From the NCBI GenBank assembly GCA_035691305.1, contig DASSJF010000005.1, forward strand, positions 11,380 to 75,379: a stretch of 64,000 nt of DNA. Direction: 5' to 3'. The first letter of the stretch is position 1, and the number at the start of each line of letters is the position of its first letter. The translations under genes and the position numbers were made by a program. The notes below the pieces were generated by a model. It had not been told where the DNA came from. It was given only the letters and a program-made list of their open reading frames with translations, and made no database searches. Below are positions 2 through 58,928 of the stretch, piece after piece. The DNA comes from a bacterium. GTDB lineage: Bacteria > Sysuimicrobiota > Sysuimicrobiia > Sysuimicrobiales > Segetimicrobiaceae.

Positions 2-166
2 AGCAGGGCCGAGATCGGCGTGCAGATGCTGATGCACGAGGTGCATCACCGCGCGCAGGTCATGGCGATGCTGAGGCAGCTCGGCGTCGAGGCGCAGAAC
101 CTCGACTACATCGGTTTCGTCGCGCGGCGCGAAGAGTTTCCACGCGATTCGGCGCCGCGCGCGTAG
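2..166 (+). CDS. DinB/DUF664-family protein, C-terminal fragment (5' end outside window)
   Basis: Frame 2 reads ...QMLMHEVHHRAQVMAMLRQLGVEAQNLDYIGFVARR..., which carries the HxxHHRxQ signature of DinB/YfiT-like metalloproteins. Stop TAG at 164-166. Confidence 0.5.
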   Translation, partial: SRAEIGVQMLMHEVHHRAQVMAMLRQLGVEAQNLDYIGFVARREEFPRDSAPRA

Positions 167-182
167 CGGCGGCGCGACGTCC

Positions 183-2342
183 GTGATGGGGGCTGCGCAC
201 CGCTCTCCGCGCGCGTACCGTGTCGGACTGGACATCGGCGGCACGTTCACCGACCTGGTGCTGCTCGACGAAGCGACCGGCGAGCTGCGCCTCCACAAGA
301 TTCTCACCACGCCGGAGGACCCCGCCCGCGCCGCGCTCGCCGGCCTCGAGGAGATCTGCGCGGCGGTCGGAGCCGGCATCGCCGACGTCACCGTGCTCGT
401 GCACGGCACGACCCTCGTGACCAATGCGATCATCGAACGGCGGGGCGCGCGCACCGCGCTGCTGGCCACACGGGGCTTCCGCGATATTTTAGAGATGGGC
501 AAGGAGCAGCGCTACGACATCTACGACTTGTTCCTGCGCTTCCCCGAACCGCTGGTGTCCCGCCGCCGGCGTTTGGAGATTGACGAGCGGGTCGCCGCCG
601 ACGGCGACGTGCTCGCGCCGCTGGACCGCGAGGCCGTGCGGCTTCTCGCGGAGCGGCTCGCCGCGGACGGCGTCGAGGCGGTCGCGGTCTCGTTTCTGCA
701 CGCGTACCGCAACCCGGCAAACGAGCGCGCCGCGCTGGAAGCAATCCGGGCGGGCGCGCCGCGTCTCGCGGTGTCGCTCTCGAGCGACGTCGTGCCGGAG
801 ATTCGCGAGTACGAGCGCACGTGCGCGACGGTGTGCAACGCGTACGTGCAGCCGCTCCTCGACCGCTACGTGGGGCGCCTCGAGTCGACGCTCGCCGACC
901 GCGGCTTTCAGGGACGCTTCACGCTGATGCAGTCGACGGGCGGCGCCGCCTCCCCGGAGACCGCCCGGCGGTTCCCCATCCGGCTGCTCGAATCGGGCCC
1001 CGCGGGCGGCGCGCTCGTCGCCGCGTTCTTCGGCGGGCCGCTCGGGCTCCGCGACGTCGTCGGATTCGACATGGGCGGCACCACCGCGAAGATCTGCCTC
1101 ATCCGCGACGGGCGCGCGGCGATCGCGCCGGAGATGGAGGTGGCCCGCGTCCACCGCTTCAAGCGCGGCTCCGGCCTGCCGGTGACGGTGCCGACGGTGG
1201 ATATGATGGAGATCGGCGCGGGCGGCGGCTCGATCGCCTGGATCGACTCGCTCGGGCTGCTCAAGGTCGGCCCGCACAGCGCCGGCGCCGAGCCGGGACC
1301 GGCCTGCTACGGCCGCGGCGGGCAGGAGCCGACGGTGACCGACGCCTGCCTCGCGCTGGGGTACTTCGATGAAGCATCGTTTCTCGGCGGCACGATGCCG
1401 CTCGACCGGCCGGCGGCCACGGCCGCGCTCGAACGGCTCGGAGCGCCGCTGCGCCTCGACGCGGTCGCCGCCGCGTGGGGCATCCACCAGATCGTCGTGG
1501 AAAGCATGGCGGCCGCGGCCCGTGTCTACCTGATCGAGCGCGGCCAGGATCCCCGCCGGTTCGCGCTGATCGCGTTCGGGGGCGCCGGCCCGTCGCACGC
1601 CGCGCGCGTGGCGCGCATTCTCGGCATGGCCGAGGTCATCGTGCCGCCGGCCTCGGGCGTCGCCTCCGCGCTCGGTCTCCTAATCGCCCCGGTGAGCGTG
1701 GAACTTGTGCACTCCCTACCCGGACCGCTGGACGCTCTGCCCTGGGACCGCGTGGCGGAGCTCTACGCGGAGATGGAGGCGCAGGGCCTCGCGGCGCTCT
1801 CCGCCGCGGGCGTGGCTCCCGGCGCCGTCCTCCGTGAGCGGCGCGCGGAGATGCGCCTGCTCGGACAGTTCCACGACATCGAGGTATCGGTACCCGACGG
1901 CCCGCTCGGACCGGAGGTGGCGGGCCGTCTCGCCACGGCGTTCGAGGCGGAGTACCGGCGGCGCTACGGCGTCTTTCTCGCCGACCGGCCGATTCAGGCG
2001 CTCAACTGGCGCCTCACCGTCACCGGACCTCGACCCGACGTGCGGCTGCGGACGGGCGAACCCGGAGCGGCCGACGCCGGCACGGCGGTACGGAGCCGGC
2101 GGTCCGCGTATTTTCCCGAGACGGGCGGGTTCGTCGACGTACCGGTCTATGATCGCGGCCGATTGCGGCCGGGCATGCGGGCCGACGGACCGGCGATCAT
2201 CGAGGAACGCGAGGCCACCACGGTCGTCTGCCCGGGGGACGCGTTCGCGGTGGACGAGTCGGGCAATCTCCGCCTGACCGTCGCCCGCCAGACGCGGCAG
2301 CCCGCATCCGTTCGCGGAGGGCGTGTGCATGGTGCGGACTGA
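183..2342 (+). CDS. hyuA: hydantoinase/oxoprolinase family protein, A subunit (N-methylhydantoinase A-like)
   Basis: 719-aa ORF. N-terminal VGLDIGGTFTDLVLLD acetate/sugar-kinase-fold motif and overall HyuA/OplA architecture. GTG/ATG start. Confidence 0.9.
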   Translation: MMGAAHRSPRAYRVGLDIGGTFTDLVLLDEATGELRLHKILTTPEDPARAALAGLEEICAAVGAGIADVTVLVHGTTLVTNAIIERRGARTALLATRGFRDILEMGKEQRYDIYDLFLRFPEPLVSRRRRLEIDERVAADGDVLAPLDREAVRLLAERLAADGVEAVAVSFLHAYRNPANERAALEAIRAGAPRLAVSLSSDVVPEIREYERTCATVCNAYVQPLLDRYVGRLESTLADRGFQGRFTLMQSTGGAASPETARRFPIRLLESGPAGGALVAAFFGGPLGLRDVVGFDMGGTTAKICLIRDGRAAIAPEMEVARVHRFKRGSGLPVTVPTVDMMEIGAGGGSIAWIDSLGLLKVGPHSAGAEPGPACYGRGGQEPTVTDACLALGYFDEASFLGGTMPLDRPAATAALERLGAPLRLDAVAAAWGIHQIVVESMAAAARVYLIERGQDPRRFALIAFGGAGPSHAARVARILGMAEVIVPPASGVASALGLLIAPVSVELVHSLPGPLDALPWDRVAELYAEMEAQGLAALSAAGVAPGAVLRERRAEMRLLGQFHDIEVSVPDGPLGPEVAGRLATAFEAEYRRRYGVFLADRPIQALNWRLTVTGPRPDVRLRTGEPGAADAGTAVRSRRSAYFPETGGFVDVPVYDRGRLRPGMRADGPAIIEEREATTVVCPGDAFAVDESGNLRLTVARQTRQPASVRGGRVHGAD

Positions 2343-17691: not shown

Positions 17692-17825
17692 CAATTTCCT
17701 CCTTGGCGACATTGCGGCATGGCGCCGCGGCATATTATCGTGAGGGTTGTTTGTAACGATTCTTCGCCGGCGCGCGATCCCCGCTCTCCAGACCGTCTGA
17801 ACGGAACGCGCGCCCCGGAATCGCC

Positions 17826-17831
17826 TATAAT
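17826..17831 (+). promoter_or_regulatory. consensus -10 hexamer TATAAT about 30 nt upstream of the ycnI-like start; weak -35
   Basis: CGCCTATAATGAACC, followed by AAGGGGGA SD and ATG at 17862. Lies in a locally AT-richer 170-bp divergent region. Confidence 0.4.
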
Positions 17832-17861
17832 GAACCGGGCGACCGGAGACCAAGGGGGACC

Positions 17862-18497
17862 ATGCGGCAGCACGCACCGGGTTGGGCAATCACGACGGCG
17901 GCCGTCCTTGGGTTGTTGAGCTGGGTAACGATGCCCGCTTTGGCCCACGAGCATCGCACAGCGGGAACCGTCGCCATGACGGTAGGATGGGGCGACGAGC
18001 CCGCGTACACCGGTATGAAGAACACGGTGCAGGTTATCCTCGCCGATAAAGCCGGCAAACCGATCGAGGACGTTACCGACACCCTCAAGGTGGAGGTTCG
18101 CTTCGGATCCCAGCTCAGCGGGCCGCTCGACATCGAGCGCGCCTTCGGGCGGACCTTCGGGCGGCCGGGCGACTACCGGGCGCAGATCGTGCCCACCCGG
18201 CCGGGCACCTATTCGTTCCACTTCACCGGTACGGTGGACAACCAGAAGATCGACGAGACGTTTACATCGTCAGACAAGACGTTCGACGATGTCCGGGAGG
18301 CGACCGCGATCGAGTTCCCCGCCAAAGATCCGTCCACGGCGGACCTCAACGGCTTGGTCCAGCGGCTCGGTCCCCGCGTCGGCGAGGCCGCATCGGCTGC
18401 GGGCCGTGCCGTCACCGTCGGGACAATCGGGCTGATCGCCGGCCTTGTGGGCATCGCCGTCGGCCTGGGCGCGATGCGGCGGAAGCGGCCCGGATAA
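17862..18497 (+). CDS. YcnI-like (DUF1775-like) secreted, C-terminally membrane-anchored putative copper-binding protein
   Basis: 211 aa. Signal peptide ending ALA|HEH gives a mature N-terminal His. A C-terminal TM helix is followed by RRKRPG. First gene of an operon with a CopC-CopD fusion. The fold assignment is inferred from architecture and context, not from strong motif identity. Confidence 0.45.
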   Translation: MRQHAPGWAITTAAVLGLLSWVTMPALAHEHRTAGTVAMTVGWGDEPAYTGMKNTVQVILADKAGKPIEDVTDTLKVEVRFGSQLSGPLDIERAFGRTFGRPGDYRAQIVPTRPGTYSFHFTGTVDNQKIDETFTSSDKTFDDVREATAIEFPAKDPSTADLNGLVQRLGPRVGEAASAAGRAVTVGTIGLIAGLVGIAVGLGAMRRKRPG

Positions 18498-18523
18498 CGG
18501 CGAAGTCGTCGGGCATCGAAACG

Positions 18524-20491
18524 TTGCGGCCCGCGCCATCCGCACTGCACCGCCTGATCGGCGCGCTCCTCAGCCTGCTCGCGGTGACGTTTCTGTCGCA
18601 CCCCGCGTGGGCCCACGCGCTGCTGCGCCAGTCGGACCCCGTGTCCGGGGCAGTGCTGCGGCGGGCCCCCGGCTTTACGACGCTTACGTTCACCGAGGAG
18701 CCTGAACCGGCGCTTTCGACGATCCAGGTCGTCGACGCGAACGGCCGGACGGTCAGCGGCGCACCGGCGACGCCGGTCTCGGGCAACCCTCTGGTCCTCC
18801 GTGTCCCGGTCCACGCGTCGGGCAACGGCGTCTACACGGTGTCGTGGCGGACGGTCTCCAGGGTCGACGGGCACACCACAGGCGGTACCTTTGCGTTCGG
18901 GGTCGGCGTTTCCGCGGCCGCCGCGGTGCTGCCCGCGTCGGCCGGATCCCCGCCCTCCGCCGCCTCGATTGTGTCGCGCTGGGCCTTCTACCTCGGTCTT
19001 TCCGGCATCATGGGTGCGGCGTGGGTCTGGACGATCGCTGCGCCGGCCGCGGCCACGGGCTCCCTGCGATATGTTTGGCTTTCATGCGCGACGGCGCTTC
19101 TCGCGGTCGCCGGGATCGGTCTCGCGCAGGCGCAGGCCGCCGGCACGGGCATCGGCCGGCTGCTCGCCACGTCGCTCGGCACGTCTCTCGCGCTTCGCGC
19201 CGGGCCCATCCTCCTCGCGGGGCTCGCCCTGGCCGCGGCGGCGCCGCGCCCCTCCGCACGACGGTGGGGGCTGGCGGCCGCGGGCGTGTGCGCCGCGGCC
19301 GCCATGCTGGTTCACGTCACCGCGGGACACGCGGGAGCCACCCTCGGTCCGCTCCGGCCCGTGAACATCGCCGTACAGTGGCTGCACTTCGTCGGCATCA
19401 CCGTTTGGCTGGGGGGACTCGCGGCCCTGCTGGCAATAGGGACCCGTGTGCCGGCCGGTCAGGTCGCGGCGGCGGCGCGGCGATTCTCGACGGTCGCGGG
19501 GATCGCCATTCTCTCGGTGGCCGTCACCGGCGCGCTGCGGGCAATCGACAACGTCGGCGCGTGGGACGCCCTCCTCTCGACGGACTACGGACGCCTCATC
19601 GTCGTCAAGGCGGCGCTTCTGCTCAGTCTGGCCGGCCTCGGCTGGGTGAACCGGTACCGCGCGATCCCGCGCCTGCCGGACACGGCCGGTCTGCTCCGAA
19701 AAGTGGCCGCGATGGAACTCGCGGTCGGCGCGGTCGTGCTGTTGCTGACCGGACTGCTCACGGGCCTCGCGCCGGCACGCCAGGCCGCCGAGGCCGCGGC
19801 CGCCGCCCGACCGCTCACGATCACCGGAAACGACTTCGCCACGTCCGTGCGCGTCCGGCTCGAGATCGCGCCCGGTTTTCCGGGCGCCAACCATTTCACC
19901 CTGCGCGCGGCGGACTACGACACCGGGCGGCCCGTCGCGGCGGACCGCGTCAGCCTGAGCTTCCGAAGTGTCGCGCGCCCCGATCTCGGCGTTTCCACCC
20001 TCGACCTGCGCACCGCGGGCGCCGGGGTGTACACTGGCGACGGCGCGAACCTGTCGCTCGGCGGCCCGTGGACCGTCGCCGCACTCCTGCAGCGCGCCGC
20101 GACCGCGGTGGAAGTGCCGCTCGCTGTCACGCCGAAGGCACGGCCCCAGACTATTCGCGAAATTCGTGCGCCGGGCCAGCCGACGCTGTACACCATCGAC
20201 CTCGGGGGAGGCATCGTGCTCAACTCGTACCTCGATCCCGGCCGGCCGGGATTCAACGAAGTGCACGCGACGTTCATCGCGCCGAACGGCGGGGAACTGC
20301 CCGTACCGCAGTCCATTACCATTCTGGCCGCACGCGCGGGCGGCGCGCGGCAGAGCGTGCCGGTGCGGCGGTTCAGCGCCGGACACTTCATTGGAGATGC
20401 GCAGCTCGGCGCGGGCGGGTGGCGGTTCGAGTTCTACGGCACCGCCCAAGACGGAACGGTGCTCGACGCGCAACTCGACGTCACGCTATGA
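18524..20491 (+). CDS. CopC-CopD fusion copper transport protein with C-terminal YtkA-like domain (YcnJ-like)
   Basis: 655 aa. Signal peptide, then HALLRQSDPVSGAVL...VSWRTVSRVDGHTTGGTFAFGVG, a classic CopC cupredoxin domain with N-terminal His. This is followed by about 8 TM helices of CopD type and a soluble C-terminal domain of about 230 aa. Confidence 0.85.
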   Translation: MRPAPSALHRLIGALLSLLAVTFLSHPAWAHALLRQSDPVSGAVLRRAPGFTTLTFTEEPEPALSTIQVVDANGRTVSGAPATPVSGNPLVLRVPVHASGNGVYTVSWRTVSRVDGHTTGGTFAFGVGVSAAAAVLPASAGSPPSAASIVSRWAFYLGLSGIMGAAWVWTIAAPAAATGSLRYVWLSCATALLAVAGIGLAQAQAAGTGIGRLLATSLGTSLALRAGPILLAGLALAAAAPRPSARRWGLAAAGVCAAAAMLVHVTAGHAGATLGPLRPVNIAVQWLHFVGITVWLGGLAALLAIGTRVPAGQVAAAARRFSTVAGIAILSVAVTGALRAIDNVGAWDALLSTDYGRLIVVKAALLLSLAGLGWVNRYRAIPRLPDTAGLLRKVAAMELAVGAVVLLLTGLLTGLAPARQAAEAAAAARPLTITGNDFATSVRVRLEIAPGFPGANHFTLRAADYDTGRPVAADRVSLSFRSVARPDLGVSTLDLRTAGAGVYTGDGANLSLGGPWTVAALLQRAATAVEVPLAVTPKARPQTIREIRAPGQPTLYTIDLGGGIVLNSYLDPGRPGFNEVHATFIAPNGGELPVPQSITILAARAGGARQSVPVRRFSAGHFIGDAQLGAGGWRFEFYGTAQDGTVLDAQLDVTL

Positions 20492-20892
20492 CGCGGGCGA
20501 TACTCGTCCTGGTCGCAATGTTCGTACTGGCGGCCTGCGGGCCGCGCGCGCAGAACGCCCCGTCCGGCCCGTCCTCGCGGCGCCCGCGCTCCACCGCCAC
20601 GCTGTCCATTCTGAAACCGGCGCCGGGCACGACGGTGTCGAGCAGAAAGCTTGAAGTACAACTGCGGCTGACGGGCGCGACCATCACACCGGAAACCTCG
20701 ACCAATCTGAAGCCCGACCGAGGACATATACACCTGATCCTCGACGGCCGCGTCGTGTCGATGACCTACGGCCTCGATCAGGTCGTCCCGGTGACGGCGG
20801 GCGATCATCTGCTGCAGGCCGAGTTCGTAGCGACGGACCACTTTCCGTTCAATCCGCGCGTCGTGACGAGTGCGACGTTCACCGTCAAGTGA
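20488..20892 (+). CDS. lipoprotein of unknown function with GHIHL motif
   Basis: ATG overlaps the copCD stop (ATGA). MTRAILVLVAMFVLAACG lipobox. 134 aa and beta-rich. The track merges it into an alternate-frame 682-aa artefact. Confidence 0.5.
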   Translation: MTRAILVLVAMFVLAACGPRAQNAPSGPSSRRPRSTATLSILKPAPGTTVSSRKLEVQLRLTGATITPETSTNLKPDRGHIHLILDGRVVSMTYGLDQVVPVTAGDHLLQAEFVATDHFPFNPRVVTSATFTVK

Positions 20893-21661
20893 CCCAGTAA
20901 CAGAGAAACGCCGCGGTGCCGCCGTGCGCGCGGCCGCGGGAGCCGCCGCCGCCGGAATCCTCGGCGCCGGGCTGCTGGTCGCCGCCGCGCTGGGCCGGAC
21001 GGGCCCGACCTGGCTGGCACGAGGTCTTTACGATGGCGTCGTGCCGCTCCCGCCGTACCAGTGGGTGCACCCGCCACGCGAACTGGCGCAGGACAATCGC
21101 CCGCCCCAGCCGAGCCGGGCCACCCGCGACCTGGACGCCTCCGGAAAGTCTCCGGGCGCCGTCGCCACCGGCGACGCCCAGTGCACGGTCATCCTTAACG
21201 ACGGGGCACTCGCCGCGGGGCCCTTCGGCCGGACCGTCACCGTGACGATCACCCCGCTCGATCCCGCCTCGATCGGCCCGCCGCCGCCGGGCATGCGGTT
21301 CGACGGGAACGCCTGCCGGTTCGGGGCCGTCTTGGGACAGAGCGGCGCCGTCCCGCAGTTCAAGCGTCCGGTAACGATCGTGCTGCGATACGCCACCGGC
21401 GGCAGCGGGATCGTTCGGGCGTTGCCCGGCGCGGCGCCGGTCTGGCAGCTCACCCGGTCCGTGCAGTACGCGGGCCACCTGCACCTGCTGGTCGGGGACG
21501 TCACGGCGTTGGGAACGTTCGCACCTGTGGCGCCCGCCGGAACTCCCTACGCGCAGAGGACGCCGTGGCTCGCGTACGTGGCCGTCGCGGGGGCGGTTGC
21601 GGTTTTCGTCGGGCTACTCTGGCTGAGGCGAAAACCGCCGCGCCCGGCAGGCGCCGCCTGA
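20870..21661 (+). CDS. uncharacterised Pro-rich two-TM membrane protein (paralog 1)
   Basis: 263 aa. N-terminal TM helix, a Pro-rich extracytoplasmic domain of about 200 aa (PPYQWVHPPRELAQDNRPPQP ... ITPLDPASIGPPPPGMRFDGNACRF ... RPVTIVLRY), then a C-terminal TM helix and a basic tail. The start may instead be GTG at 20924. Confidence 0.5.
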   Translation: MRRSPSSDPVTEKRRGAAVRAAAGAAAAGILGAGLLVAAALGRTGPTWLARGLYDGVVPLPPYQWVHPPRELAQDNRPPQPSRATRDLDASGKSPGAVATGDAQCTVILNDGALAAGPFGRTVTVTITPLDPASIGPPPPGMRFDGNACRFGAVLGQSGAVPQFKRPVTIVLRYATGGSGIVRALPGAAPVWQLTRSVQYAGHLHLLVGDVTALGTFAPVAPAGTPYAQRTPWLAYVAVAGAVAVFVGLLWLRRKPPRPAGAA

Positions 21662-24995: not shown

Positions 24996-25538
24996 GTGGT
25001 ATTCCCTTACTCGTTGGACGTCCTCCTACCTCTCGTCGCGGGATTTCTCGGCAGCGCGGCGCTCGCGCTGCGTCCGCCGGCCACCGTCGCCTCGCTTGCG
25101 ATTACCCTCGCGACCGGCGTAATCGGCGGCGCCACACCGGTGCCGCGGGCGCCACGCGGGGACGGCGCGCGGCTGTCGTGGCTCGCCGTGGCGGCAGTCG
25201 GGATCGCGGCCTTCGCCGCGGCCCGCGCGCTGCAGCATCCCCTGGCGCCGAAGATGACGCCGCTCCTCGTCGCCGCGACCGCGGCCGCCGGCGTCGCCGA
25301 AGAATTGCTGTTCCGCCGGCTGCTCTATGGCGCGCTCGCGGTGTACGGCGCCGCGCTCGCCGTCGGCGGATCCGCGGCGGTCTTCGCCGCGGTTCACGTG
25401 CCGGCGTACGGCGTCGCCGCGTTCCCGGTGGATCTCGCGGCCGGCCTCGTCTTCGGATGGCAGCGCTGGGCGTCCGGCACCTGGACGGCCTCGGCCGCCA
25501 CTCATGCCGCCGCAAATCTGATCCAGGCCGCGTGGTGA
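24996..25538 (+). CDS. CPBP family intramembrane metalloprotease (CAAX protease/PrsW-like)
   Basis: About 180 aa. Four TM segments with the EELLFR motif-1 glutamates and the FAAVH motif. GTG 24996 or TTG 25014 start. The upstream part of the 285-aa track ORF is antisense to the dehydrogenase gene. Confidence 0.7.
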   Translation: MVFPYSLDVLLPLVAGFLGSAALALRPPATVASLAITLATGVIGGATPVPRAPRGDGARLSWLAVAAVGIAAFAAARALQHPLAPKMTPLLVAATAAAGVAEELLFRRLLYGALAVYGAALAVGGSAAVFAAVHVPAYGVAAFPVDLAAGLVFGWQRWASGTWTASAATHAAANLIQAAW

Positions 25539-25545
25539 GCGCCCC

Positions 25546-26286
25546 GTGGTAATCATCGGGCGCGCGCGCTTGACGGCCGCGGCGTGGGGAATCGCCGCGG
25601 CCGCCGTGTACCTGGTGGCCGCCCCGCTCGCGTGGCACCACGTCCCGGCGCGGCTGCTCTACGAAGGCGAAGCTCCGCCGGCTCCGTATCACTGGATCGC
25701 CCCGCCGCCCGACCTCGCGCGGGACAACCAGCCGCCGACGGGTGGAACGGGACAGATCGGCCTCAACCCCACCGGCTCCGGATCCGCCTCGATCCTGACC
25801 GACGACGCGCAGGCCGGCATCATCTTCCCGCACGATTCGGTGGCGCCGAGGCCCGGTGTCACCGCCGCAATCGTGCGGATCACGGCGGTCGACCCGGCGA
25901 AGGTCGCGCCGCCGCCCCCCGGCCTCGTCTTCGACGGCAACGCCTACCGCGTGGACGCGGCCTATCAGAATGACGGCGCGATCGTGCTGCGGCGCCCCGT
26001 CACGCCTGTGCTGCGCTATCCCCGGCACGCCACCGTGCTGCTGCGGTGGAGCGACGGGGCGTGGACGGCGCTCGACAGCAAGCGCGTCCCGGCGGCGTTG
26101 CAGATCTTCGCGGCCTCAGACCGCTTGGGGGTGTTCGTGGCGGCCGGCCCGGGGGGCGGCGGGTCATCCCGGGCGGTCTACGCGATCGGGGCGGCGGCCG
26201 CGCTGCTCGCCGCGGCGGCGGTCATCTGGATGATCAGACCGAACCGGCGTAAGGGTACGCGGCGCGGCGACGGTCCGACCGCCTGA
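25546..26286 (+). CDS. uncharacterised Pro-rich two-TM membrane protein (paralog 2)
   Basis: 246 aa. Same architecture and collinear motifs as 20870..21661 (APYHWIAPPPDLARDNQPPTG, ITAVDPAKVAPPPPGLVFDGNAYRV, RPVTPVLRY). Begins 8 nt after the CPBP stop. Confidence 0.5.
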   Translation: MVIIGRARLTAAAWGIAAAAVYLVAAPLAWHHVPARLLYEGEAPPAPYHWIAPPPDLARDNQPPTGGTGQIGLNPTGSGSASILTDDAQAGIIFPHDSVAPRPGVTAAIVRITAVDPAKVAPPPPGLVFDGNAYRVDAAYQNDGAIVLRRPVTPVLRYPRHATVLLRWSDGAWTALDSKRVPAALQIFAASDRLGVFVAAGPGGGGSSRAVYAIGAAAALLAAAAVIWMIRPNRRKGTRRGDGPTA

Positions 26287-33786: not shown

Positions 33787-34512
33787 TTACAGCGCGGGTC
33801 GGACCGGAAACACCTGAAGAATCCAGGCGTTGAGACGGTAGATCCAGTCGAAGAGAAGCGCCGCGCCCATCACGACCAGGAACGCGCCACCCGTGACCTC
33901 GATCGCGTGTGCGTAGCGCCTGATCGCACGGAGCGCGCCGAAAGCTCTCGTGAGCAGCGCGGCGGTGACGAGAAACGGCAGGCCGAGGCCGAGCGAGTAC
34001 GCGAACAGCAGCAGGGCACCGTCGGCCGCGCGCGCCGTCGTCGCCGCGAGCGTCAGGATCGCGCCGAGGACCGGTCCGACGCACGGCGTCCACGCAAACC
34101 CGAACGCCATGCCCACGAGCACGATCCCGGCCAGCCCGGCCGGCCGGGCCGAGAACGCGAAGCGCCGTTCGCGGGAGAGCCCGGGGATCCGCAGCACCCC
34201 CAGCATGACGAGACCGAACAGAATGACGATCGCGCCGCCGATCCGGCCGAGCAGCTCCCGGTTGCCGAGAATGAACCCGCCGGCGAGAGACGCGGACGCC
34301 CCGAGTCCGGTAAACACGAGGGAGAAGCCAAACACGAAGAGCAGCGTCGCCCCGACGACGCGCCAGACGTGCCGTCGCCGTTCGGCCGCCTCGACCTCGA
34401 GCAGCGAGACGCCCGACACGAACGATAGGTAGCCCGGGATGAGCGGCACGATGCACGGCGAGAAGAAGCCGAGCACGCCGGCGGCGAACGCGATCACGAG
34501 CGAGAGATGCAC
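33787..34512 (-). CDS. ccdA: cytochrome c biogenesis thiol-disulfide transporter CcdA (DsbD-beta family)
   Basis: 241 aa. Six TM helices with the two conserved Cys (FFSPCIVPL and WTPCVGPVL). Confidence 0.85.
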   Translation of the reverse strand: MHLSLVIAFAAGVLGFFSPCIVPLIPGYLSFVSGVSLLEVEAAERRRHVWRVVGATLLFVFGFSLVFTGLGASASLAGGFILGNRELLGRIGGAIVILFGLVMLGVLRIPGLSRERRFAFSARPAGLAGIVLVGMAFGFAWTPCVGPVLGAILTLAATTARAADGALLLFAYSLGLGLPFLVTAALLTRAFGALRAIRRYAHAIEVTGGAFLVVMGAALLFDWIYRLNAWILQVFPVRPAL

Positions 34513-34524
34513 CGGGTCTCCGCG

Positions 34525-35040
34525 CTACCGATTCGCCAGCGCGTCGATGGCCGTTCGCAGTTCCGCCTCGCCCGCCGGCCCGTACCCCGCGCGAACGACC
34601 GTCCCGGCCCGCGAGATCACGGCCCAGTACGGCTGGTAGGTGAAGCCGTACGACTTGGCGACGCGCTCGTCCCCGTCGTACGCGTTCGGAAACGACAGGT
34701 GATACCGCTTCACGAACGCCTCGCAGGACGCGCGCCCGGCGAGCAGTCCGATGCCCAAGAGCGCCACGCCCTTCGCCCTGGCCTCACCGTCCGCGCGCTC
34801 CCACCCGGGGGCGTCTCCGTTGCAGGTGGGTCACCACGGCGCCCAAAACAGCAGGATGACGGGCTTTCCTTTAAATGACGCGAGGCTGACGGACCCGCCG
34901 CCGAGCAGGGGCAACTGAAAGTCGGGCGCCCGAACCGGAGCCGCCTGGGCGATTTCGGGGGCGGACGGCGCGCCCGGAGCGACGCCAATCAGGATGCTCG
35001 CCGCCAGCGCGATCGCAAGTGGAGCAAGCCGGGACGGCAC
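34525..35040 (-). CDS. TlpA/ResA/DsbE-family thioredoxin-like protein with a single in-frame TGA at the first Cys of WCxxC (candidate selenoprotein W-U-P-T-C; alternatively a pseudogene)
   Basis: Track ORFs 34831..35040 and 34525..34767 are in the same frame, separated only by TGA (plus-strand tca 34831-34833). Read through, they give a 171-aa protein ...GKPVILLFWAPW[TGA]PTCNGDAPGW...HLSFPNAYDGDERVAKSYGF.... GTG start with AGGAG SD. A hairpin begins immediately 3' of the TGA. The gene lies directly upstream of ccdA. Confidence 0.55.
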
Positions 35041-35048
35041 GACGGCTC

Positions 35049-35843
35049 CTAGTGACGCCAGCGGGGCGGGCGTTTTTCGAGGAAGGCCCGCATCCCCTCT
35101 TGCGCGTCCGGCGCCAGCGCGTTCTCCACCATCACCTTTTGGGCGACGGCGTAGGCCTCTGGCCGGTCCTTGGAGAGCTGCTGGTAGAAGCCGCGCTTGC
35201 CGATCGCGAGCGTATACGAGCTGGCGGCGATCACCTGGGCAGCGAGGGCCATCGTCTCTGCCTCAAGCCGGTCGGTCGGGACGATGCGGTTGACGAGGTC
35301 CGCGCGCCGGGCGTCCTCGGCGCTGATGGGCGTCCCCGTCAGCAGCATCTCCATCGCCTTCCGCGGACCAACCGCCCGTGCGACGGCCACGCCGGGCGTG
35401 GTGCAGAACAGACCGTTCTTGACTCCCGGCGTGGCGAACGTAGCGTCCTCGGAGGCGACGACGAGATCGCAGGTCGCGACGAGTTGGCAGCCGGCGGCGG
35501 TGGCGAGGGCGTGCACCTGGGCGATCACCGGCTTGGGCAACGTCCGGATCGTCTCCATGACGCCGGTGCAGACGTCGAACAGCGAGGCGACGTCGGCCTC
35601 GGGCTGGCCCACGAGTTCGCGCAGGTCGTGGCCGGAGCTGAACACCGGGCCCACCGCGCGAATGACGACGGCGCGCACCCGGTCGTCGTCGGCGGCCCGG
35701 TCGAGGGACCGCTGCAACTCCTGAAGCATCGCGCGCGACAGGGCGTTGCGGCGCTCCGGATGGTTGAGGGTAAGCACGGCGACGTTCTCTTTGACCTCAT
35801 ACAGGAGAAGCGGTTTCTGCTGCTGCTCTACCGGCGCGCTCAT
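35049..35843 (-). CDS. enoyl-CoA hydratase/isomerase family protein
   Basis: Crotonase fold with an oxyanion-hole region (AVIRAVGPVFSSGHDL, GLFCTTPG). Start M at 35843 (GGAGGGG SD); a second ATG at 35849 is possible. Confidence 0.85.
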   Translation of the reverse strand: MSAPVEQQQKPLLLYEVKENVAVLTLNHPERRNALSRAMLQELQRSLDRAADDDRVRAVVIRAVGPVFSSGHDLRELVGQPEADVASLFDVCTGVMETIRTLPKPVIAQVHALATAAGCQLVATCDLVVASEDATFATPGVKNGLFCTTPGVAVARAVGPRKAMEMLLTGTPISAEDARRADLVNRIVPTDRLEAETMALAAQVIAASSYTLAIGKRGFYQQLSKDRPEAYAVAQKVMVENALAPDAQEGMRAFLEKRPPRWRH

Positions 35844-36358
35844 CCTCATCACCCCTCCGAAGACTACACTCCGGAGACTACAACGGATGCGCAAGGCCAT
35901 TCCTTCCTGTTGAGAGTGCCCAAAAACGTGGCCGGCGGGCGCTCCGGGAGCGCCCGCCGTTAGACCGCCGGGCCTCGTTTCCCCCCGTTACGAGGCCCGG
36001 CCGAACAACGGTCTGCGTCGAGGCAGGTAGCGAAAACTGTTGCTGCGGACGGCGATTCGAAGAAACCCTATGAGCCCGACCGACAGCAGGGCCAACGGGA
36101 CTCCATATGCGATCGTCAACATCAGCCGGTCCGTGCTCCTTAACATCCCAGAGTTGAGTTTACTTGGCCCGGGCGGGAGCAGTAATCGGGCGATGGCCCT
36201 ATTGGGATCCAAAATCGGGTCTCCACCCGATGCCGGCGGGGGCCGGCGGCGGAGGGTCTCCACTTGCTCGCCGGCGTGGGCGATTATTCGGGGATTTGGG
36301 TGGGAATGAAGCGGTTAGAGGGTCACTGAGGCGCGACGGGGGTGGTGGCGAACTGGGC

Positions 36359-40918: not shown

Positions 40919-40979
40919 CCGAGCGACCGCCACCCGCTTTTCGCCCACCGTACGTTGCCGATCGCGGAGGGTGCGGCCG

Positions 40980-41669
40980 TCACTTCGGCAGGGTCTTCGC
41001 GACGTCGGAGTTTTGCGTGTAGAGACCGACCACTTCCCCCCACGCCAGGACGTGCGACTGCCCGGCCCGTGGGACATCGGCGGCAGTAAAATTCGCCGGC
41101 ACCGGCAGACGCGCGACGTTAAGCGCGTAGACCCGGAAGTGGTAGTGGTGCACGGCGGCGTCGTTCCACGGAGGGCACGGTCCGTCGTAGCCGGCACGGC
41201 CGTTGCCGTAGTCGTTGAGACCGCGCACGCCGTTGGGGGTCGGTCCGGCAGACTTGGCCGTGCCGTCCTTGGAATCCGCCCCCTCGGGCAGCGACGTGAC
41301 CGACGCCGGGATATCGACCAGCAGCCAATGATACCACGGCCGCCGCTTCATGGTGGCCGGGATGACTTTGCCTTCCTTGTCGGCGTCGGTAAGAACCGCG
41401 GGGACATCCGTATCGACGACCACGATGGCGTACGACGCGGTCCCGGACGGGCCGCGCGACCAAGAGATTGCCGGGCTCACGTTCTGTCCCGGCGCGGTGT
41501 GGCCCGTCGCGGCCGGGACGCAGAAGGCGTACCTCTGCGGGATGACGCCGCCCGCCCGGAAACTGTCCACCGTCACTGTGAGGGTCGCCTGAGCCTGCGC
41601 GGCCGGCGCCGAGGGCGCGGCGGCCAGCAAGACCGCGGTCGAGACCAACCACAGGATCGATCGCCTCAT
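40980..41669 (-). CDS. YbhB/YbcL-family phosphatidylethanolamine-binding protein (PEBP/Raf-kinase-inhibitor-like), secreted
   Basis: Start at the internal MRRSILWLVSTAVLLAAAPS (signal peptide), ATG 41669 with GGAGAGGTG SD. DGPCPPW...HHYHFRVYAL PEBP core. The upstream 188 codons of the track ORF are non-coding. Confidence 0.8.
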   Translation of the reverse strand: MRRSILWLVSTAVLLAAAPSAPAAQAQATLTVTVDSFRAGGVIPQRYAFCVPAATGHTAPGQNVSPAISWSRGPSGTASYAIVVVDTDVPAVLTDADKEGKVIPATMKRRPWYHWLLVDIPASVTSLPEGADSKDGTAKSAGPTPNGVRGLNDYGNGRAGYDGPCPPWNDAAVHHYHFRVYALNVARLPVPANFTAADVPRAGQSHVLAWGEVVGLYTQNSDVAKTLPK

Positions 41670-41771
41670 AAGCACCTCTCCAGGGGGCTCTGGGACTCGG
41701 GTTCGGTCCCCCGCGACCGGGATTCCTCCGTTCGTCCCCGCCGCTCCCGCGAATGGAACACCCGCGCCGCC

Positions 41772-41798
41772 GTTTACGCTTCTTAAGGCGGAGGGTAA
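41772..41798 (+). promoter_or_regulatory. sigma-B/sigma-F (general stress sigma) type promoter: GTTTAC - 15 nt - GGGTAA
   Basis: GTTTAC at 41772-41777 and GGGTAA at 41793-41798. This matches the GTTT-N15-GGGTAT consensus of SigB/SigF promoters. It lies 80-115 nt upstream of the STAS-domain gene. Confidence 0.45.
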
Positions 41799-41876
41799 AT
41801 ATCGGGAGGCTAAACAGCGGGTCTGGAGGTCCGTGCGGCGGGGGAAGGTCGGCGCGGATCGCTTTTCGGTCCGGCA

Positions 41877-42317
41877 GTGCTTTTCAACGACGCGGACGTC
41901 GAGAACAGCCTTATGAGAGCACAGGCTCGGGTCACGGTGCACCAACCGCCACGCGCCACCGTGGCGTGTGTGGAAGGCGATCTCGACCTCGTCAGTCTGC
42001 CGCAGGTCGAGCGTGAGCTGCGGGCAGCCGCGTCCGATGCGAAGGCGAACTCCCTCGTCGCCGTCGACGTCACGGGCGTGACGTACCTCAACAGCGCGGC
42101 GATCCGCCTGCTGTACGATCTCGCCGAGGACCTCCGCACGAGGCGGCGCCAGCTCCGAGTTGTGATGTCGTCGGACGCGCCGCTGCGCGCGCTGTTCCGG
42201 CGCCTTCGATTCGACACCGTCATACCCGTGCACGACACCGTCGACGAGGCGATCGCCGAAGCCGTCTCCGATTCGTCGGACACGGATGGGAGCGATCGTT
42301 CGCGCGCACCCGGCTAG
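41877..42317 (+). CDS. STAS-domain protein (anti-sigma factor antagonist, SpoIIAA/RsbV-like)
   Basis: GTG 41877 or ATG 41913 start. Conserved DLSGVTYLNSAAIRLL-type region (VDVTGVTYLNSAAIRLLYDL). The conserved Ser/Thr phosphorylation position lies in that region. Confidence 0.7.
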   Translation: MLFNDADVENSLMRAQARVTVHQPPRATVACVEGDLDLVSLPQVERELRAAASDAKANSLVAVDVTGVTYLNSAAIRLLYDLAEDLRTRRRQLRVVMSSDAPLRALFRRLRFDTVIPVHDTVDEAIAEAVSDSSDTDGSDRSRAPG

Positions 42318-42339
42318 ACACGAAGGAGGGCATGCGGAG

Positions 42340-42576
42340 ATGAGCGTTTCGATGAATGTTATCCCGTCGCTGATGCGGATTCACCGGCAGCTGCGGCTGC
42401 TCGACCGGGCCTACACCGACTCGGAGAGTAAGCAGCAAGTCCAGAACGCGGTAGAGGCGAAGCTCGATGAGCTTCACGCGATCCACGACCTTCTACCGAC
42501 GGACCTGCGGGACAAGAGCTGGATCTTTCTGATGCAGGGCTACAACAACTGGGGGAAGCTCTCCAAGTCGGCCTGA
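42340..42576 (+). CDS. small hypothetical protein (78 aa), locally low GC
   Basis: ATG with AAGGAGG SD 10 nt upstream. MSVSMNVIPSLMRIHRQLRLLDRAYTDSESKQQVQNAVEAKLDELHAI..., predicted helical. GC is visibly lower than its surroundings. Confidence 0.4.
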   Translation: MSVSMNVIPSLMRIHRQLRLLDRAYTDSESKQQVQNAVEAKLDELHAIHDLLPTDLRDKSWIFLMQGYNNWGKLSKSA

Positions 42577-42627
42577 GCCCGGGCGCGCGTTTGACCACGC
42601 CCCGCGCACGGGAAAACTTGTGGTGTC

Positions 42628-43005
42628 ATGCGGCGCTCGCACGCTACGCTCAGATGGAGCCTCGGGCCCGCGGCGGCGGTCGTGATGGCCTGGGCGGCTG
42701 CAGCCGGCGCGGCGCCGCTTTCCGTCAGGGTCGTCTCGGTGACCACGCCGGTGATGCGCGGCACGGAGGGCCGGCTCGTCGTGCGCACGGCACCCCACGC
42801 GCGGTGCGGCGCGTCTGTGCAGGCGCTGTCTGATCCCCACCGTACGATCGCGTCGTTGCCGCCGCACGCCGCGGGGTCGGACGGGCTCGTGAAGTTCAGC
42901 GTCCGCGTTCCCGATATCGCCAAGGCGGGTCCCTATCCCGTAACCGTCTCGTGCCGGCGCGGCGAGAAGGCCGCCGTCACGCACCTCCGCGTCACCGTCC
43001 AGTAA
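42628..43005 (+). CDS. hypothetical secreted protein
   Basis: 125 aa with signal peptide (LGPAAAVVMAWAAAAGAAP). No recognised motifs. Confidence 0.35.
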   Translation: MRRSHATLRWSLGPAAAVVMAWAAAAGAAPLSVRVVSVTTPVMRGTEGRLVVRTAPHARCGASVQALSDPHRTIASLPPHAAGSDGLVKFSVRVPDIAKAGPYPVTVSCRRGEKAAVTHLRVTVQ

Positions 43006-54572: not shown

Positions 54573-54587
54573 GATGGTAAGGCGATC

Positions 54588-56423
54588 GTGGCACAGGCCA
54601 TCCGAAACATCGCGATCATTGCGCACGTCGACCACGGCAAGACGACGCTCGTGGATGCGATGCTGCGGCAGAGCGGCACGTTCCGCGCCAACGAGACCGT
54701 GGTGGACCGCGTGCTCGACTCCAACGAATTGGAGCGCGAACGCGGTATCACCATCCTCGCGAAGAATACCGCCGTGTTCTATCAGGGCGTCAAGATCAAC
54801 ATCGTCGACACCCCGGGGCACAGCGACTTCGGGGGCGAGGTCGAGCGCGCGCTCAAGATGGTTGACGGGGTGATGCTGCTCGTCGACGCGAGCGAGGGGC
54901 CGCTGCCCCAGACGCGGTACGTGCTCGGCAAAGCGCTCGAGGCAGGGCTCCCGCCGGTCGTCGTCATCAACAAGATGGACCGGCCCGACGCGCGGGCGCC
55001 GCAGGTGCTGAACGAAATCTACGATCTGTTCATCGACCTCGACGCGGTAGAGGCTCAGCTCGACTTCCCCGTCCTGTACGCGAACGCCCGCGCCGGCACC
55101 GCCTCGCGCGCTCCGGCGGACCCGGGGATCGATCTGCGGCCCCTCTTCGACGCGATCGTTTCGACCGTGCCGGCGCCGGCCGGCGACGCCGCGGGGCCGC
55201 TGCAGGTGCTGGTGGCCAACCTCGATTACAGCGACTACCTCGGCCGCATTGCGATCGCGCGCGTCTTCAACGGCACCCTGCGGACCGGCGCCGACGCGGG
55301 CATCGCGAAGGTGGACGGCCGCGTCATCCGCACCCGCATCACGAAGCTGTTCTCGTTCAGCGGGCTGGATCGCATCGACATCGAGACGACCGACCTCGGC
55401 GACATCGTCGCGGTCGCCGGCGTCGAGGGGATCGCGATCGGCGACACGATCACCGACCCGGACACGCCGGCCCCGCTGGCGCGCGTCGCGATCGACGAAC
55501 CCACGATCGCGATCCAGTTCTGCGTCAACACGTCGCCGTTCGCGGGGCGCGAGGGGGCGTACGTGACGTCGCGCAACCTGCGCGAGCGGCTGGACAAGGA
55601 GCTCCTCACCAACGTCGCGCTGCGGGTCGCGGAAGGCGGGTCGCCGGACACCTTCGCCGTGATGGGGCGCGGCGAGCTGCAGCTTTCGATCCTGATCGAG
55701 ACGATGCGCCGCGAGGGCTACGAACTGATGGCGGGACGGCCGGAGATCGTGACGAAGGTGGTGGACGGCCGGGTGATGGAGCCGGTGGAACTGCTCTTCC
55801 TCGACGTGCCGGAGCAGTTCGTCGGCGCCGTGGTCGAGAAGCTCGGCCCGCGGAAGGCGGTCATGGTCAACATGCGCAACCACGGATCCGGGCGCGCGCG
55901 GCTGGAGTTCCGGATTCCGAGCCGCGGCCTGATCGGCCTGCGCGGCGAGCTGCTGACCGAGACCCGCGGCACGATCGTCATGAACTCACTCTTCGACGGG
56001 TACGTCCCCTGGAGCGGCGACATTCCCCGCCGCCCCACGGGCGCGCTCGTCGCCGACCGCCCGGGCGTCACCACCGCCTACGCGCTCTACAACCTGCAGG
56101 AGCGCGGCGACCTGTTCGTCGGCCCCGGCACCGAGGTATACGAGGGCATGGTCGTCGGCGAGCACGCGCGCGACAACGATCTCGACGTCAACGCGGTGCG
56201 CGAGAAAAAGCTCACTAACATCCGGTCGTCCACCGCCGACATCGCGGTCCGCCTTGTCCCGCCGCGCGCGCTGAACCTCGAGCAGGCGCTCGAGTTCATC
56301 GCGGACGACGAATTCGTCGAGATCACGCCGGCGGCGTTGCGCCTGAGAAAACGGGTCCTGCGGGCCAACCGGCGGCCGAAGCGGGACGAGGTGCCCGCCG
56401 GCACTCCCGCCGGACGGTCCTAA
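54588..56423 (+). CDS. typA: translational GTPase TypA/BipA
   Basis: 611 aa. [18 protein letters not shown]1 and DTPGHSDF G3 motifs. EF-G-like domains. Confidence 0.95.
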
Positions 56424-56473
56424 GCGGTCGCGCTCCGGAGATGGAACCGGCGGGGTAAGTTTGTAGCGACCCC

Positions 56474-57748
56474 ATGTCCACCGCCCCGGAACGGGAAACG
56501 ATCGCCGCCGGCGGCCGTACGGTCGCGATTTCCAACCCGCGGAAAATCCTTTTTCCCGGTAGAGGGTACACCAAGCTGGACTTGGTGCGGTACTTCCTGG
56601 CCGTCGCCGGCGGCGCGCTGCGCGCGGCCGGCGGCCGGCCGAACATGCTGGTGCGCTACCCGAACGGCGTCGGCGGCGAGTTCTTCTTCCAGAAGCGCGC
56701 CCCCCGGTCGCGGCCGGATTGGATCGAGGTCGTCTCTCTCCGCTTTCCCTCCGGCCGTTCCGCCGACGAGGTGGTGCCGCGCGACGCCGCGGCGCTCGCG
56801 TGGATGGCCAACCTCGCCTGTCTCGAGCTCCACCCGCATCCGGTGCGGGCCGAGGACCTCGAGCACCCCGACGAGCTGCGTATCGATCTCGACCCGATGC
56901 CGGGCGTCGGCTGGCCGCAGGTCCGCGACGTGGCCCGGGTGGTGCGCGGCGCGCTGGAGGACTTCGGCATGACCGGCTGGCCGAAGACGTCCGGCGGCCG
57001 CGGGATGCACGTGCTCGTGCGGCTCGAGCCCCGCTGGACCTTCGACGAGGTCCGCCGCGCCGCCCTGGCCCTGGCCCGCGACGTCGAGCGCCGCGCGCCC
57101 TCGCTCGCGACCAGCAAGTGGTGGAAGGAAGAGCGCCACGGCGTCTTCATCGACTACAACCAGAACGCCAAAGACCGCACGGTCGCCGCGGCGTACTCCG
57201 TGCGGCCCACCGCCGATGCCCGCGTCTCCGCGCCGTTGTCGTGGGCCGATGTCGACGGCTGCGATCCGGGCGAGTTCACGCTGGCCACGATGCCGCGGCG
57301 CTTCGCCGCAGTCGGCGACCCGCACGCCGGCATCGACGAGTCGCCATGCCCGCTCTCCGCCCTCCTTGAGCTGTCCGCCCGCCACGAGCGCGACGGGCTC
57401 GGCGACGCGCCGTGGCCCCCGCACTATCGCAAGCAGGCCGGGGAGCCCGTCCGCGCGCAGCCATCCCGCCGCCGCGCGCCGGTGTTCCCGCTCATCGAGA
57501 TCGCGCGAGCGTATCGCAAGGACGACGCCGCCGCGGGGCTCGACCGCTGGCGGGCGCGCCATCCCGGCGCCGCGGCGTATCTTGCGCCCGACGACATTCT
57601 CGTCGACGCGATGCGGGGCCGCTCGACCACGTGGACGCGCATCCGGCTGAATTTGAGACACGTGCCGGAAACACTGCGCCCGGAGCACGAGCCCCCTGAT
57701 CCCGACGAAGTCCCGGCGTGGCCGGGGCGCCCGCCGGCGCCGCGCTAG
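56474..57748 (+). CDS. non-homologous end-joining DNA polymerase (LigD polymerase/primase domain protein) with C-terminal extension
   Basis: 424 aa. LigD-Pol/PrimPol-type core ([15 protein letters not shown]..., GRGMHV) of about 300 aa, plus an extra tail of about 120 aa. Confidence 0.75.
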
Positions 57749-57764
57749 ACACCCGCGGCCCCGC

Positions 57765-58862
57765 CTAACGTCCGCGGGCGCCGAACACCTTCTCCAGCTC
57801 GAACGGCGGCGCGACCTCGAGCTGATCGTACCGGCACTCCGCCGGCCGCTTGTCGGACCGCCAGCGCAGAAACAGGGCCGCGTGCCGGAACCGTCGGCCC
57901 TGCAGGTGATCGTACTTGACCTCGCACACGCGCTCGACGCGCACCGGCTCCCAGGACAGATCCTTGCCGGCGCTCCACCGGCTCTGCCCGCCGGGCATGC
58001 GCACGAACTCTGCCGGGTCCGGGTTCGCCCACTCGCGCCACGGATGCTGCGCGAGGGCCTCCCGGCGCAGCGGCGCGAGCTCCTCGGCAAGCCGCCGGCG
58101 CGTCGCCATCGGAAACGCGGACGTGACGCCGACGTGGTGCAGCGCTCCGCTGTCGTCGTAGAGGCCCAGCAGCAGCGAGCCGACCGCGCCGACGCCGCTC
58201 TTGTGCCAGCGGAAGCCCGCCACGACGCAGTCCGCGGTCCGGGCGTGCTTGACCTTGACCATCGCCCGCTTGCCCGGCTGATAGGTCCCCCGCTCCGGCT
58301 TGGCGACGACGCCGTCGAGACCCGCCCCCTCGAACTCGCGCAGCCACACGGCCGCCGTCTCGCGATCGCGTGTGACCGGCGTGAGGTAGATCGGCCGCGC
58401 CGCGGCGCGGAGGAGCCGCTCGAGCTGCGCGCGGCGATCCGCCTGCGGCGCCGTTCGGATGTCGCGGCCGCCGGCCGCGAGCGCGTCAAACGCCACGAAC
58501 GCCGCGGGCGTGACCGTCGCCAGCATGGCGACGCGGGATGCAGCCGGATGCAGCCGCAGCTGCAGCGCCTCGAAATCCAGTCCGCGGACCGTCACGATGA
58601 CGATTTCGCCGTCGAGCACGCACCCCGGGCCCAGTTGGGCGAGAAATGCCTCGCGCAGCTCCGGAAAGTACCGGTCGAGGGGCCGCAGATCGCGGCTCTG
58701 GATGAAGACCTCGTCGGCACCGCGGAAGACGAGGGCGCGAAAGCCGTCCCACTTGGGCTCGTACAGCCATCCGGACCCATCGGGCAGCGTCCCGGCGGAC
58801 GCGGCCAGCATCGGCTCGACCGGCGGCGCGATCGGAAACGCGGAAGGGTTGGGGACATTCAC
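57765..58862 (-). CDS. ATP-dependent DNA ligase (LigD ligase domain protein)
   Basis: 365 aa. EPKWDGFR adenylation motif I (KxDG) and an OB-fold C-terminus. Convergent with the Pol gene, ends 17 nt apart. Confidence 0.85.
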
Positions 58863-58928
58863 AGCACGATGATACCCGCCCGCACGGCGGCCCGCCCGCG
58901 TGGGTTCTCCAGCCTGCGCCGCGGCGGG

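Follow-up and report, generated by a model that had tools for sequence, protein, structure and literature searches.

The stretch of DNA analysed here, referred to below as the window, comprises 64,000 nucleotides from a bacterium of the Segetimicrobiaceae (phylum Sysuimicrobiota; contig DASSJF010000005.1 of assembly GCA_035691305.1), and carries on its minus strand, at 34525..35040, a redoxin gene with one in-frame TGA codon. On comparison with its relatives this is very probably a genuine selenoprotein gene, in which the TGA is predicted to direct the insertion of selenocysteine (Sec, U). An earlier note on the same DNA had proposed a Sec codon at the N-terminal position of a CxxC motif in a TlpA/ResA-like protein paired with ccdA, and this proposal now has behind it a TGA conserved among orthologues, Cys-containing homologues, equal selection on both sides of the codon, a hairpin constrained in the Sec forms only and a confidently predicted fold. 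The criteria by which the field predicts selenoproteins, i.e., a Sec/Cys pair, orthologues with the TGA, conservation on both flanks and a bacterial selenocysteine insertion sequence (bSECIS), are all found at this locus, the features of which are the following.

35049..35900, minus strand: enoyl-CoA hydratase (ECH_1) gene, upstream of the redoxin gene (annotation).
35046..35050, minus strand: Shine-Dalgarno sequence AGGAG, 5 nt before the GTG start at 35040 (sequence).
34525..35040, minus strand: predicted selenoprotein gene, complete, with 171 codons, GTG start, UGA70 as Sec, TAG stop and the motif W-U70-P-T-C73 (sequence, Pfam, PDB matches, AlphaFold).
34942..35040, minus strand: putative N-terminal hydrophobic signal or anchor, residues 1-33, with an A-Q-A end before A-P (sequence, orthologue comparison).
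34831..34833, minus strand: in-frame UGA, codon 70, predicted to be read as selenocysteine and aligning with the first Cys of WCxxC in homologues (alignment).
34800..34830, minus strand: hairpin of the earlier note, CCCACCUG / CGGGUGGG with a 15-nt loop (fold; not conserved).
34796..34813, minus strand: candidate SECIS hairpin CGCCCCC-GGGU-GGGAGCG, overlying codons D76-R82 (RNAalifold, codon entropy, pair conservation).
34527..34525, minus strand: TAG stop of the redoxin gene (sequence).
33787..34512, minus strand: ccdA, membrane electron transporter of the DsbD_TM family (Pfam PF02683, E 1.4e-14).

Two minus-strand open reading frames (ORFs), 34831..35040 (69 aa, GTG start) and 34525..34767, lie in a common frame with one TGA (34833..34831) between them, and read-through of 34525..35040 yields 171 residues, ...KPVILLFWAPW-[TGA]-PTCNGDAPGWER..., with the motif W-U-P-T-C. 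The sequence and its translation thus reproduce what the earlier note had described, including the gene's own GTG start and its AGGAG (35050..35046), which overlaps the TAG stop (35051..35049) of the upstream enoyl-CoA hydratase gene. The pairing with ccdA is likewise as described, the GTG start of this DsbD_TM gene lying 12 nt past the TAG stop of the redoxin gene in the same orientation. With Cys placed at position 70, the read-through product matches the Pfam families AhpC-TSA (E 1e-20) and Redoxin (E 2e-20), both above the gathering scores. A third Cys, Cys106 (34723..34725, ...RASCEAF...), is conserved in many family members (A-C-x-x-F) and is Val or Ser in others.

The TGA at codon 70 is conserved among orthologues. 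It was found in 92 of the fetched loci (61 distinct sequences), while 18 loci (14 distinct sequences) carry TGC or TGT at the same codon. A scan of one genome per GTDB species returned 23 loci, with TGA in 17/23 and TGC or TGT in 6/23, and a scan of JGI metagenomes returned 73 loci with the motif, with TGA in 61/73 and TGC or TGT in 12/73; orthologues at 46-81% identity retain the TGA. The alignment of orthologues that the earlier note had suggested therefore gives a Sec/Cys pair in which TGA is the majority state, rather than uniform Cys, and no further lesions. Chance falls far short of explaining why the TGA coincides with the first Cys of CxxC, as that note had argued from the single sequence.

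The same counts bear on the alternative, which the earlier note had itself raised and doubted, that a recent TGC-to-TGA nonsense mutation has left a fresh pseudogene with the two ORFs as its remnants. A single base change would suffice for this, gene callers do annotate two fragments and no Sec machinery was seen in the window. However, a TGA shared by 61 distinct sequences from many species, with no other lesion, is hard to reconcile with a fresh loss, and so is the pattern of selection. The ratio of nonsynonymous to synonymous differences per site (pN/pS) among 21 Sec forms (210 pairs) was 0.44 upstream of the TGA (34 codons) and 0.43 downstream (101 codons), with pS ~0.60, i.e., saturated synonymous sites, indicating that both halves have been held as coding sequence over a long divergence while the TGA was retained. 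In addition, parsimony makes U ancestral and the constrained hairpin described below is found in the TGA forms only, and we regard the pseudogene as having a negligible probability. A single-base sequencing or assembly error can be given hardly any credence either, the same base being present in independent ENA, Logan, JGI and NCBI metagenome-assembled genome (MAG) assemblies from differing samples and sequencing runs. Independent soil metagenomes, namely ENA assemblies of Chinese farmland and several Logan runs, contain at least 23 contigs that encode a CcdA protein identical to the window's. All six of these contigs that were inspected have the same 69-aa plus 80-aa split at an identical TGA, and such split gene calls are thus present in at least six independent soil assemblies of this organism.

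A protein search returned 19 full-length W-C-P-T-C homologues at 50-77% identity, together with eight proteins of ~100 residues at 52-60% identity that start one or two residues past the Sec position. The DNA upstream of the latter encodes, in frame, an intact signal peptide and an N-terminal half ending ...LLFWAPW, followed by TGA, showing that the ~100-residue database stubs exist because the gene was broken at the in-frame TGA. The public gene callers (ENA, JGI, Logan and NCBI MAGs) split the gene in every call examined (L001-L013, proteins P0020-P0027) and invent starts at GTG, ATC or ACG right past the TGA, which gives ~100-residue stubs labelled 'AhpC-TSA (weak)' and orphan peptides of 57-69 residues. 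Searches of protein databases consequently meet only ~100-residue stubs of one conserved enzyme.

That both pieces appear in database gene calls, and that a GTG stands directly past the TGA in some lineages, might suggest two separate small proteins, a 69-aa exported peptide and a C-terminal fragment of 80-101 aa translated from an internal GTG. However, the codon past the TGA is CCC, CCG, ATC, ACG or GTG, so that a start is not conserved there, and the next start in the window lies 21 codons downstream. Moreover, the two pieces form one compact thioredoxin-fold domain, the break falls inside the active-site turn and the C-terminal piece would have no signal peptide. Two separate products are thus very improbable. 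A genome-wide reassignment of TGA was ruled out as well: TGA ends 17 of the 38 Pfam-supported ORFs of the window, and in seven genome-derived loci the Sec-form gene itself terminates at a TGA, i.e., the codon is a normal terminator in these genomes.

The second line of evidence for Sec insertion is an RNA element downstream of the UGA. An 18-nt hairpin with the consensus CGCCCCC-GKGU-GGGAGCG (34813..34796; K is G or U) begins 17 nt past the UGA, and its loop begins 24 nt past the UGA. The RNAalifold consensus (-9 kcal/mol) contains the pairs C30-G47, G31-C46 and C32-G45, a C33.A44 mismatch, and the pairs C34-G43, C35-G42 and C36-G41 below a G-G/U-G-U loop, i.e., an architecture of 3 bp, a C.A mismatch (or bulged A) and 3 bp. 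Two registers fit the variants, namely the C33.A44 mismatch with a GKGU loop, or a bulged A44 with a CGKGU loop. Across the 21 aligned Sec forms, the stretch GCCCCCG[G/U]GUGGGAGCG (17 nt, codons +7 to +12) is invariant save at the G/U position. Third-position entropy is 0 over codons +7..+11 (GCC CCC GKG TGG GAG) in the Sec forms, which is the sole such run in the gene, the neighbouring codons varying freely, whereas the six Cys forms of that alignment use GCG/GCA/GCC, CCG/GCG and other codons at the +7..+11 positions.

The wider set of sequences shows the same partition. The hairpin pairs are retained in 58-61 of the 61 distinct Sec forms and in 1 to 14 of the 14 distinct Cys forms (C30-G47 in 1/14, 34-43 in 9/14 and 36-41 in 6/14). 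Column 30, the third base of codon 76 (34813 in the window), is C in 59/61 Sec forms versus 1/14 Cys forms, and residue 76 is Asp (GAC; rarely His, Asn or Glu) in the Sec forms versus Glu (GAG/GAA) in the Cys forms. The RNA element thus appears to dictate residue 76, with Asp in place of Glu, since the C of GAC pairs with G47. The few variants among the Sec forms keep the pairing: with C33U a U-A pair or a U.G wobble forms, with C34U a U.G wobble, and the double variant C36A+G39A refolds so as to contain an A-U pair and a GGA loop. What supports the element is not thermodynamics but the suppression of synonymous change that the alignments show specifically in the Sec forms. Two Cys forms that stand beside Sec clades keep most of the hairpin (L015:8851, GCC CCC GGG TGG GAG; L071:510, GAC GCT CCC GGC TGG GAA). 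Elsewhere in the fetched DNA the hairpin core has only chance matches without an in-frame TGA, of which L091:1643 encodes ...ILGWERHKG in another frame.

The published bSECIS criteria call for a loop of 3-9 nt with G in its first two positions followed by G or U, a UGA-to-loop distance of 16-37 nt and a minimum free energy (MFE) of at most -7.5 kcal/mol (PMC13188914). The hairpin of the window has a 4-nt GKGU loop starting with G[G/U], a spacing of 24 nt and -9.3 kcal/mol, values that fall within these bounds. Over the 61 Sec forms the MFE of the 18-nt hairpin ranges from -7.0 to -12.8 kcal/mol (mean -8.1). Hairpins folded with short flanks gave -9.3 to -14.3 kcal/mol. The candidate therefore resembles the bacterial consensus (the bSECISearch model; E. 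coli fdhF type) in its small apical G[G/U] loop, its G+C-rich upper stem with one unpaired position, its spacing of 24 nt (16-37 allowed) and its energy, which does not exceed -7.5 kcal/mol either in the window or as a mean. It differs from that consensus in being very short (6 bp), in lacking a conserved extended lower stem (an A29-U48 pair is present in 46/61 forms) and in being conserved family-wide at the level of sequence rather than of structure only.

The earlier note had also placed a bacterial SECIS 3' of the UGA, and this holds insofar as a bSECIS-type hairpin is present at 34813..34796. However, the stem that it proposed, at 34830..34800, is not conserved, and the conserved element is shorter and reuses the 3' arm of that stem. 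The proposed hairpin, CCCACCUG-15 nt-CGGGUGGG, is part of the minimum-free-energy fold; its stability is z = +1.0, 174/200 shuffles folding at least as well in this 71% G+C sequence, and its pairs 13-43, 15-41 and 18-38 are retained in only 36, 32 and 25 of the 61 Sec forms. It shares GGGUGGG with the conserved hairpin and so competes for the same arm, and a ribosome covering the first 8 nt past the UGA would be expected to melt it. This 8-bp stem was ruled out as the SECIS, being not conserved and having a 15-nt loop versus 3-9 nt in the published model.

The presence of a hairpin raises another explanation, namely that the hairpin stimulates recoding of the UGA without Sec, through near-cognate Cys or Trp insertion or as a regulated mixture of the 69-residue and full-length products, in organisms without SelB. 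The window and the related flanks showed no Sec machinery and no covariation ties the hairpin specifically to SelB, both of which leave room for this explanation. However, the UGA stands exactly where CxxC has its nucleophilic Cys, a position at which known selenoproteins as a rule exchange Sec and Cys (PMC1088965, PMC1794560), and both the loop sequence and the spacing of the hairpin fit the bSECIS consensus of the SelB type. The nucleotide past the UGA varies (C, G or A), so that there is no leaky-stop context. Finally, Trp would kill catalysis, and Cys would give no reason for a TGA and a hairpin to be kept in most lineages. Recoding without Sec is thus unlikely.

Several observations weigh against Sec insertion. 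Searches of the 64-kb window and of ~0.94 Mb of related flanks, which amount to only a small fraction of these genomes, turned up no selA, selB, selD or tRNA-Sec. The tblastn probes for this search of 0.94 Mb of window and loci were E. coli SelA, SelB and SelD sequences, and they gave only GTPase-domain matches to BipA-like genes; a Pfam scan of 37 window ORFs showed no sel genes, and ARAGORN found no tRNA-Sec in the window or in any of the loci. The fetched DNA likewise showed no further selenoprotein gene, and a composition scan for further in-frame TGAs between coding-like stretches gave this gene and ordinary gene junctions only. As for the hairpin, its invariance in the RNAalifold alignment means that there is no compensatory covariation, its energy is unexceptional versus shuffles in the G+C-rich context (z -0.7 to -1.7), and Rfam gave no relevant match either for the window at the gathering threshold or for 34740..34860 at E up to 10. 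In addition, the Sysuimicrobiota genome paper contains no mention of selenium. An EF-Tu-like GTPase at 54573..56423 was considered as SelB and rejected, being BipA/TypA. The sole ARAGORN call in the window is an 87-nt tRNA-Arg(CCT) at 1274..1360 on the minus strand, inside a hydantoinase-A ORF (75..2342, plus strand, Pfam E 1e-91), and is probably a false positive.

The protein itself belongs to the TlpA/ResA-like family named in the earlier note, on which Pfam, the PDB matches and a predicted ResA-like fold agree. A phmmer search of the PDB matched Geobacter 3kcm (E 3e-18), M. tuberculosis Mpt53/DsbE (E 4e-17), M. tuberculosis DsbF (E 7e-15) and B. subtilis ResA (E about 1e-14), with StoA, CcmG/CycY and TlpA scoring weaker, and all of these listed matches align position 70 with the first Cys of W-C-x-x-C. 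An AlphaFold2 model built with 31 sequences has a predicted confidence (pLDDT) of 87, with values above 95 for residues 40-171, and it places position 70 directly before helix 72-89. The best Foldseek matches of this model in the PDB are ResA structures (TM-score 0.91 on the target, root-mean-square deviation 1.5 Å), followed by DsbE, DsbF and 3kcm. The invariant P137 occupies the cis-Pro position and aligns with the V-P of 3kcm, and Asp76, six positions past U70, is by motif reading what we take to be the equivalent of ResA Glu80. Every orthologue has a hydrophobic N-terminus, then an AxA-like motif and then a conserved AP.F.L.L; such a sequence would make the protein exported or membrane-anchored, with signal cleavage, if it occurs, expected past A33.

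B. subtilis ResA, the partner of CcdA in System II of cytochrome c maturation, and the M. tuberculosis proteins DsbE (Mpt53) and DsbF are among the closest known proteins; they match best in structure, and their sequence matches (E 1e-13 to 1e-17) rank near the top. The shared traits are a hydrophobic N-terminus that may here serve as anchor or signal, a W-C-x-x-C motif with which helix 1 begins, an acidic residue six past the first Cys, the cis-Pro and the adjacency of ccdA. Unlike ResA, the protein here would have Sec for the first Cys, and the dipeptide within the motif is P-T versus E-P in ResA. The NCBIfam ResA model (PRK03147) gave 69 bits against a cut-off of 170 bits, and no resB/resC or cytochrome c genes were found in the window or the annotated loci, which gives no ground for assigning the protein to the maturation of cytochrome c. 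On the strength of the model and these matches, the gene product is best described as a predicted ResA/TlpA-like thioredoxin-fold reductase and not as ResA proper.

Membership in NF041054, the ResA-like WAxxUGC selenoprotein family, was considered and ruled out, the score being 66 bits versus 300, the length 171 residues versus 354 model positions and the motif U-P-T-C, not UGC. The two are alike in being TlpA/ResA-fold selenoproteins, as far as the present one is predicted to be, and the W-A-x-x-U context there resembles W-A-P-W-U here.

A ccdA homologue lies directly downstream in 57/84 Sec-form loci and in 17/17 Cys-form loci, counting loci with enough flank. The other 27 Sec-form loci, about a third, are without ccdA directly downstream (e.g., L016, L027:607, L083 and L110). 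In L027 an ABC peptide-transport operon comes next. CcdA-ResA/TlpA is an established reductive pathway, and by analogy with it the ccdA product is presumed to supply the reductant for the selenoprotein.

A mechanism can be proposed on this basis. SelB.GTP.Sec-tRNA(Sec) would bind the hairpin at 34813..34796, which begins 17 nt 3' of the UGA. With the UGA in the A site, the hairpin would stand at the mRNA entrance, and recoding to Sec would take the place of termination. The N-terminal signal or anchor would carry the protein to the extracytoplasmic side. There the U70/C73 pair may cycle between selenolate/thiol and selenenylsulfide, reducing the disulfides of client proteins. The known client classes of the ResA/TlpA-type family are apocytochrome c, Cu-site assembly factors and envelope repair enzymes. 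The co-transcribed CcdA may in turn re-reduce the selenoprotein with electrons from cytoplasmic thioredoxin, as in the CcdA-ResA/TlpA pathway.

The distribution of Sec and Cys was followed in a neighbour-joining tree of 89 distinct proteins (63 U, 26 C), on which Fitch parsimony places U at the root and counts four state changes. The window's lineage groups with the Sec forms L037 and L038, and its sister is a Cys clade (P0001-4, L015, L042 and L043). The hairpin relics in L015 and L071, as read from their sequences, point to a Sec-to-Cys conversion that looks recent. The genomes of the family have 64-71% G+C, and their MAG labels are 'bacterium', Firmicutes/Bacillota, Armatimonadota, Chloroflexota and Candidatus Fervidifonticultor quintus, the last of which is placed by NCBI in Candidatus Sysuimicrobiota, formerly CSP1-3. 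The family thus probably belongs to Sysuimicrobiota (CSP1-3) or close relatives, an uncultivated high-G+C lineage of soils and hot springs in which it is widespread. The phylum CSP1-3 can exceed 20% relative abundance in soils (PMC11604079). No paper in the searchable literature joins CSP1-3 with selenocysteine or contains 'WAxxUGC', and the lineage is in that literature not yet tied to selenium.

UxxC thioredoxin-fold selenoproteins are the commonest predicted class. Redoxin and TlpA-like selenoproteins with UxxC are long-known families (PMC1088965, PMC1794560, PMC2398784, PMC13188914), catalogued since 2004-2008 as 'Prx-like thiol:disulfide oxidoreductase' (PF00578), 'Prx-like 3' (PF08534), 'thiol:disulfide interchange protein' and 'UGC-containing TlpA', all of which are included in a 2026 review. 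The Prx-like 1 and 3 families, described by Kryukov, Zhang and Gladyshev, were reported from Geobacter, Syntrophus and the Sargasso Sea and Global Ocean Sampling (GOS) metagenomes (PMC1088965, PMC1794560, PMC2398784, PMC13188914). The present family is like these in its AhpC-TSA and Redoxin domains, its N-terminal Sec in UxxC as predicted here, its abundant Cys homologues and the criteria of prediction, a likeness that rests on domains, motif and family definitions, the reference proteins (e.g., WP_010940744.1) having been compared by description only. Unlike them, it is confined to a high-G+C soil and hot-spring lineage, is mostly followed by ccdA and has a sequence-invariant SECIS candidate. 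The gene thus joins a known type of UxxC redoxin selenoprotein, possibly as a new subfamily, and the existing picture of selenoproteins is unchanged.

A broader proposal can be made tentatively, with confidence that stops a little short of even: that CSP1-3 bacteria use Sec and have an exported ResA-like reductase as a signature selenoprotein, that Sec in it is ancestral and predominant (about 80% of loci), and that a SECIS frozen across the phylum forces Asp over Glu at the position equivalent to ResA Glu80. If so, the thiol-redox homeostasis of the CSP1-3 envelope would depend on selenium, and the 18-nt hairpin would offer a ready-made minimal recognition element for SelB. An extracytoplasmic, CcdA-linked predicted selenoprotein would be added to CSP1-3, and added selenium might help cultivation. 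The family also presents a natural experiment, with 63 distinct Sec versus 26 distinct Cys proteins, at least four state switches, SECIS relics and an apparent RNA constraint that shifts an active-site-proximal Glu to Asp.

Some further features of the window were recorded in passing. The stretches 18500..21600 and 40920..42830 received no confident gene assignment in a quick annotation, and the ORFs 17757..18497 and 25522..26286 have a coding-like composition without a Pfam match. At 56459..58928 a LigD primase-polymerase gene on the plus strand adjoins a convergent ATP-dependent DNA ligase gene on the minus strand, a repair pair of the non-homologous end-joining type that is unrelated to the selenoprotein.

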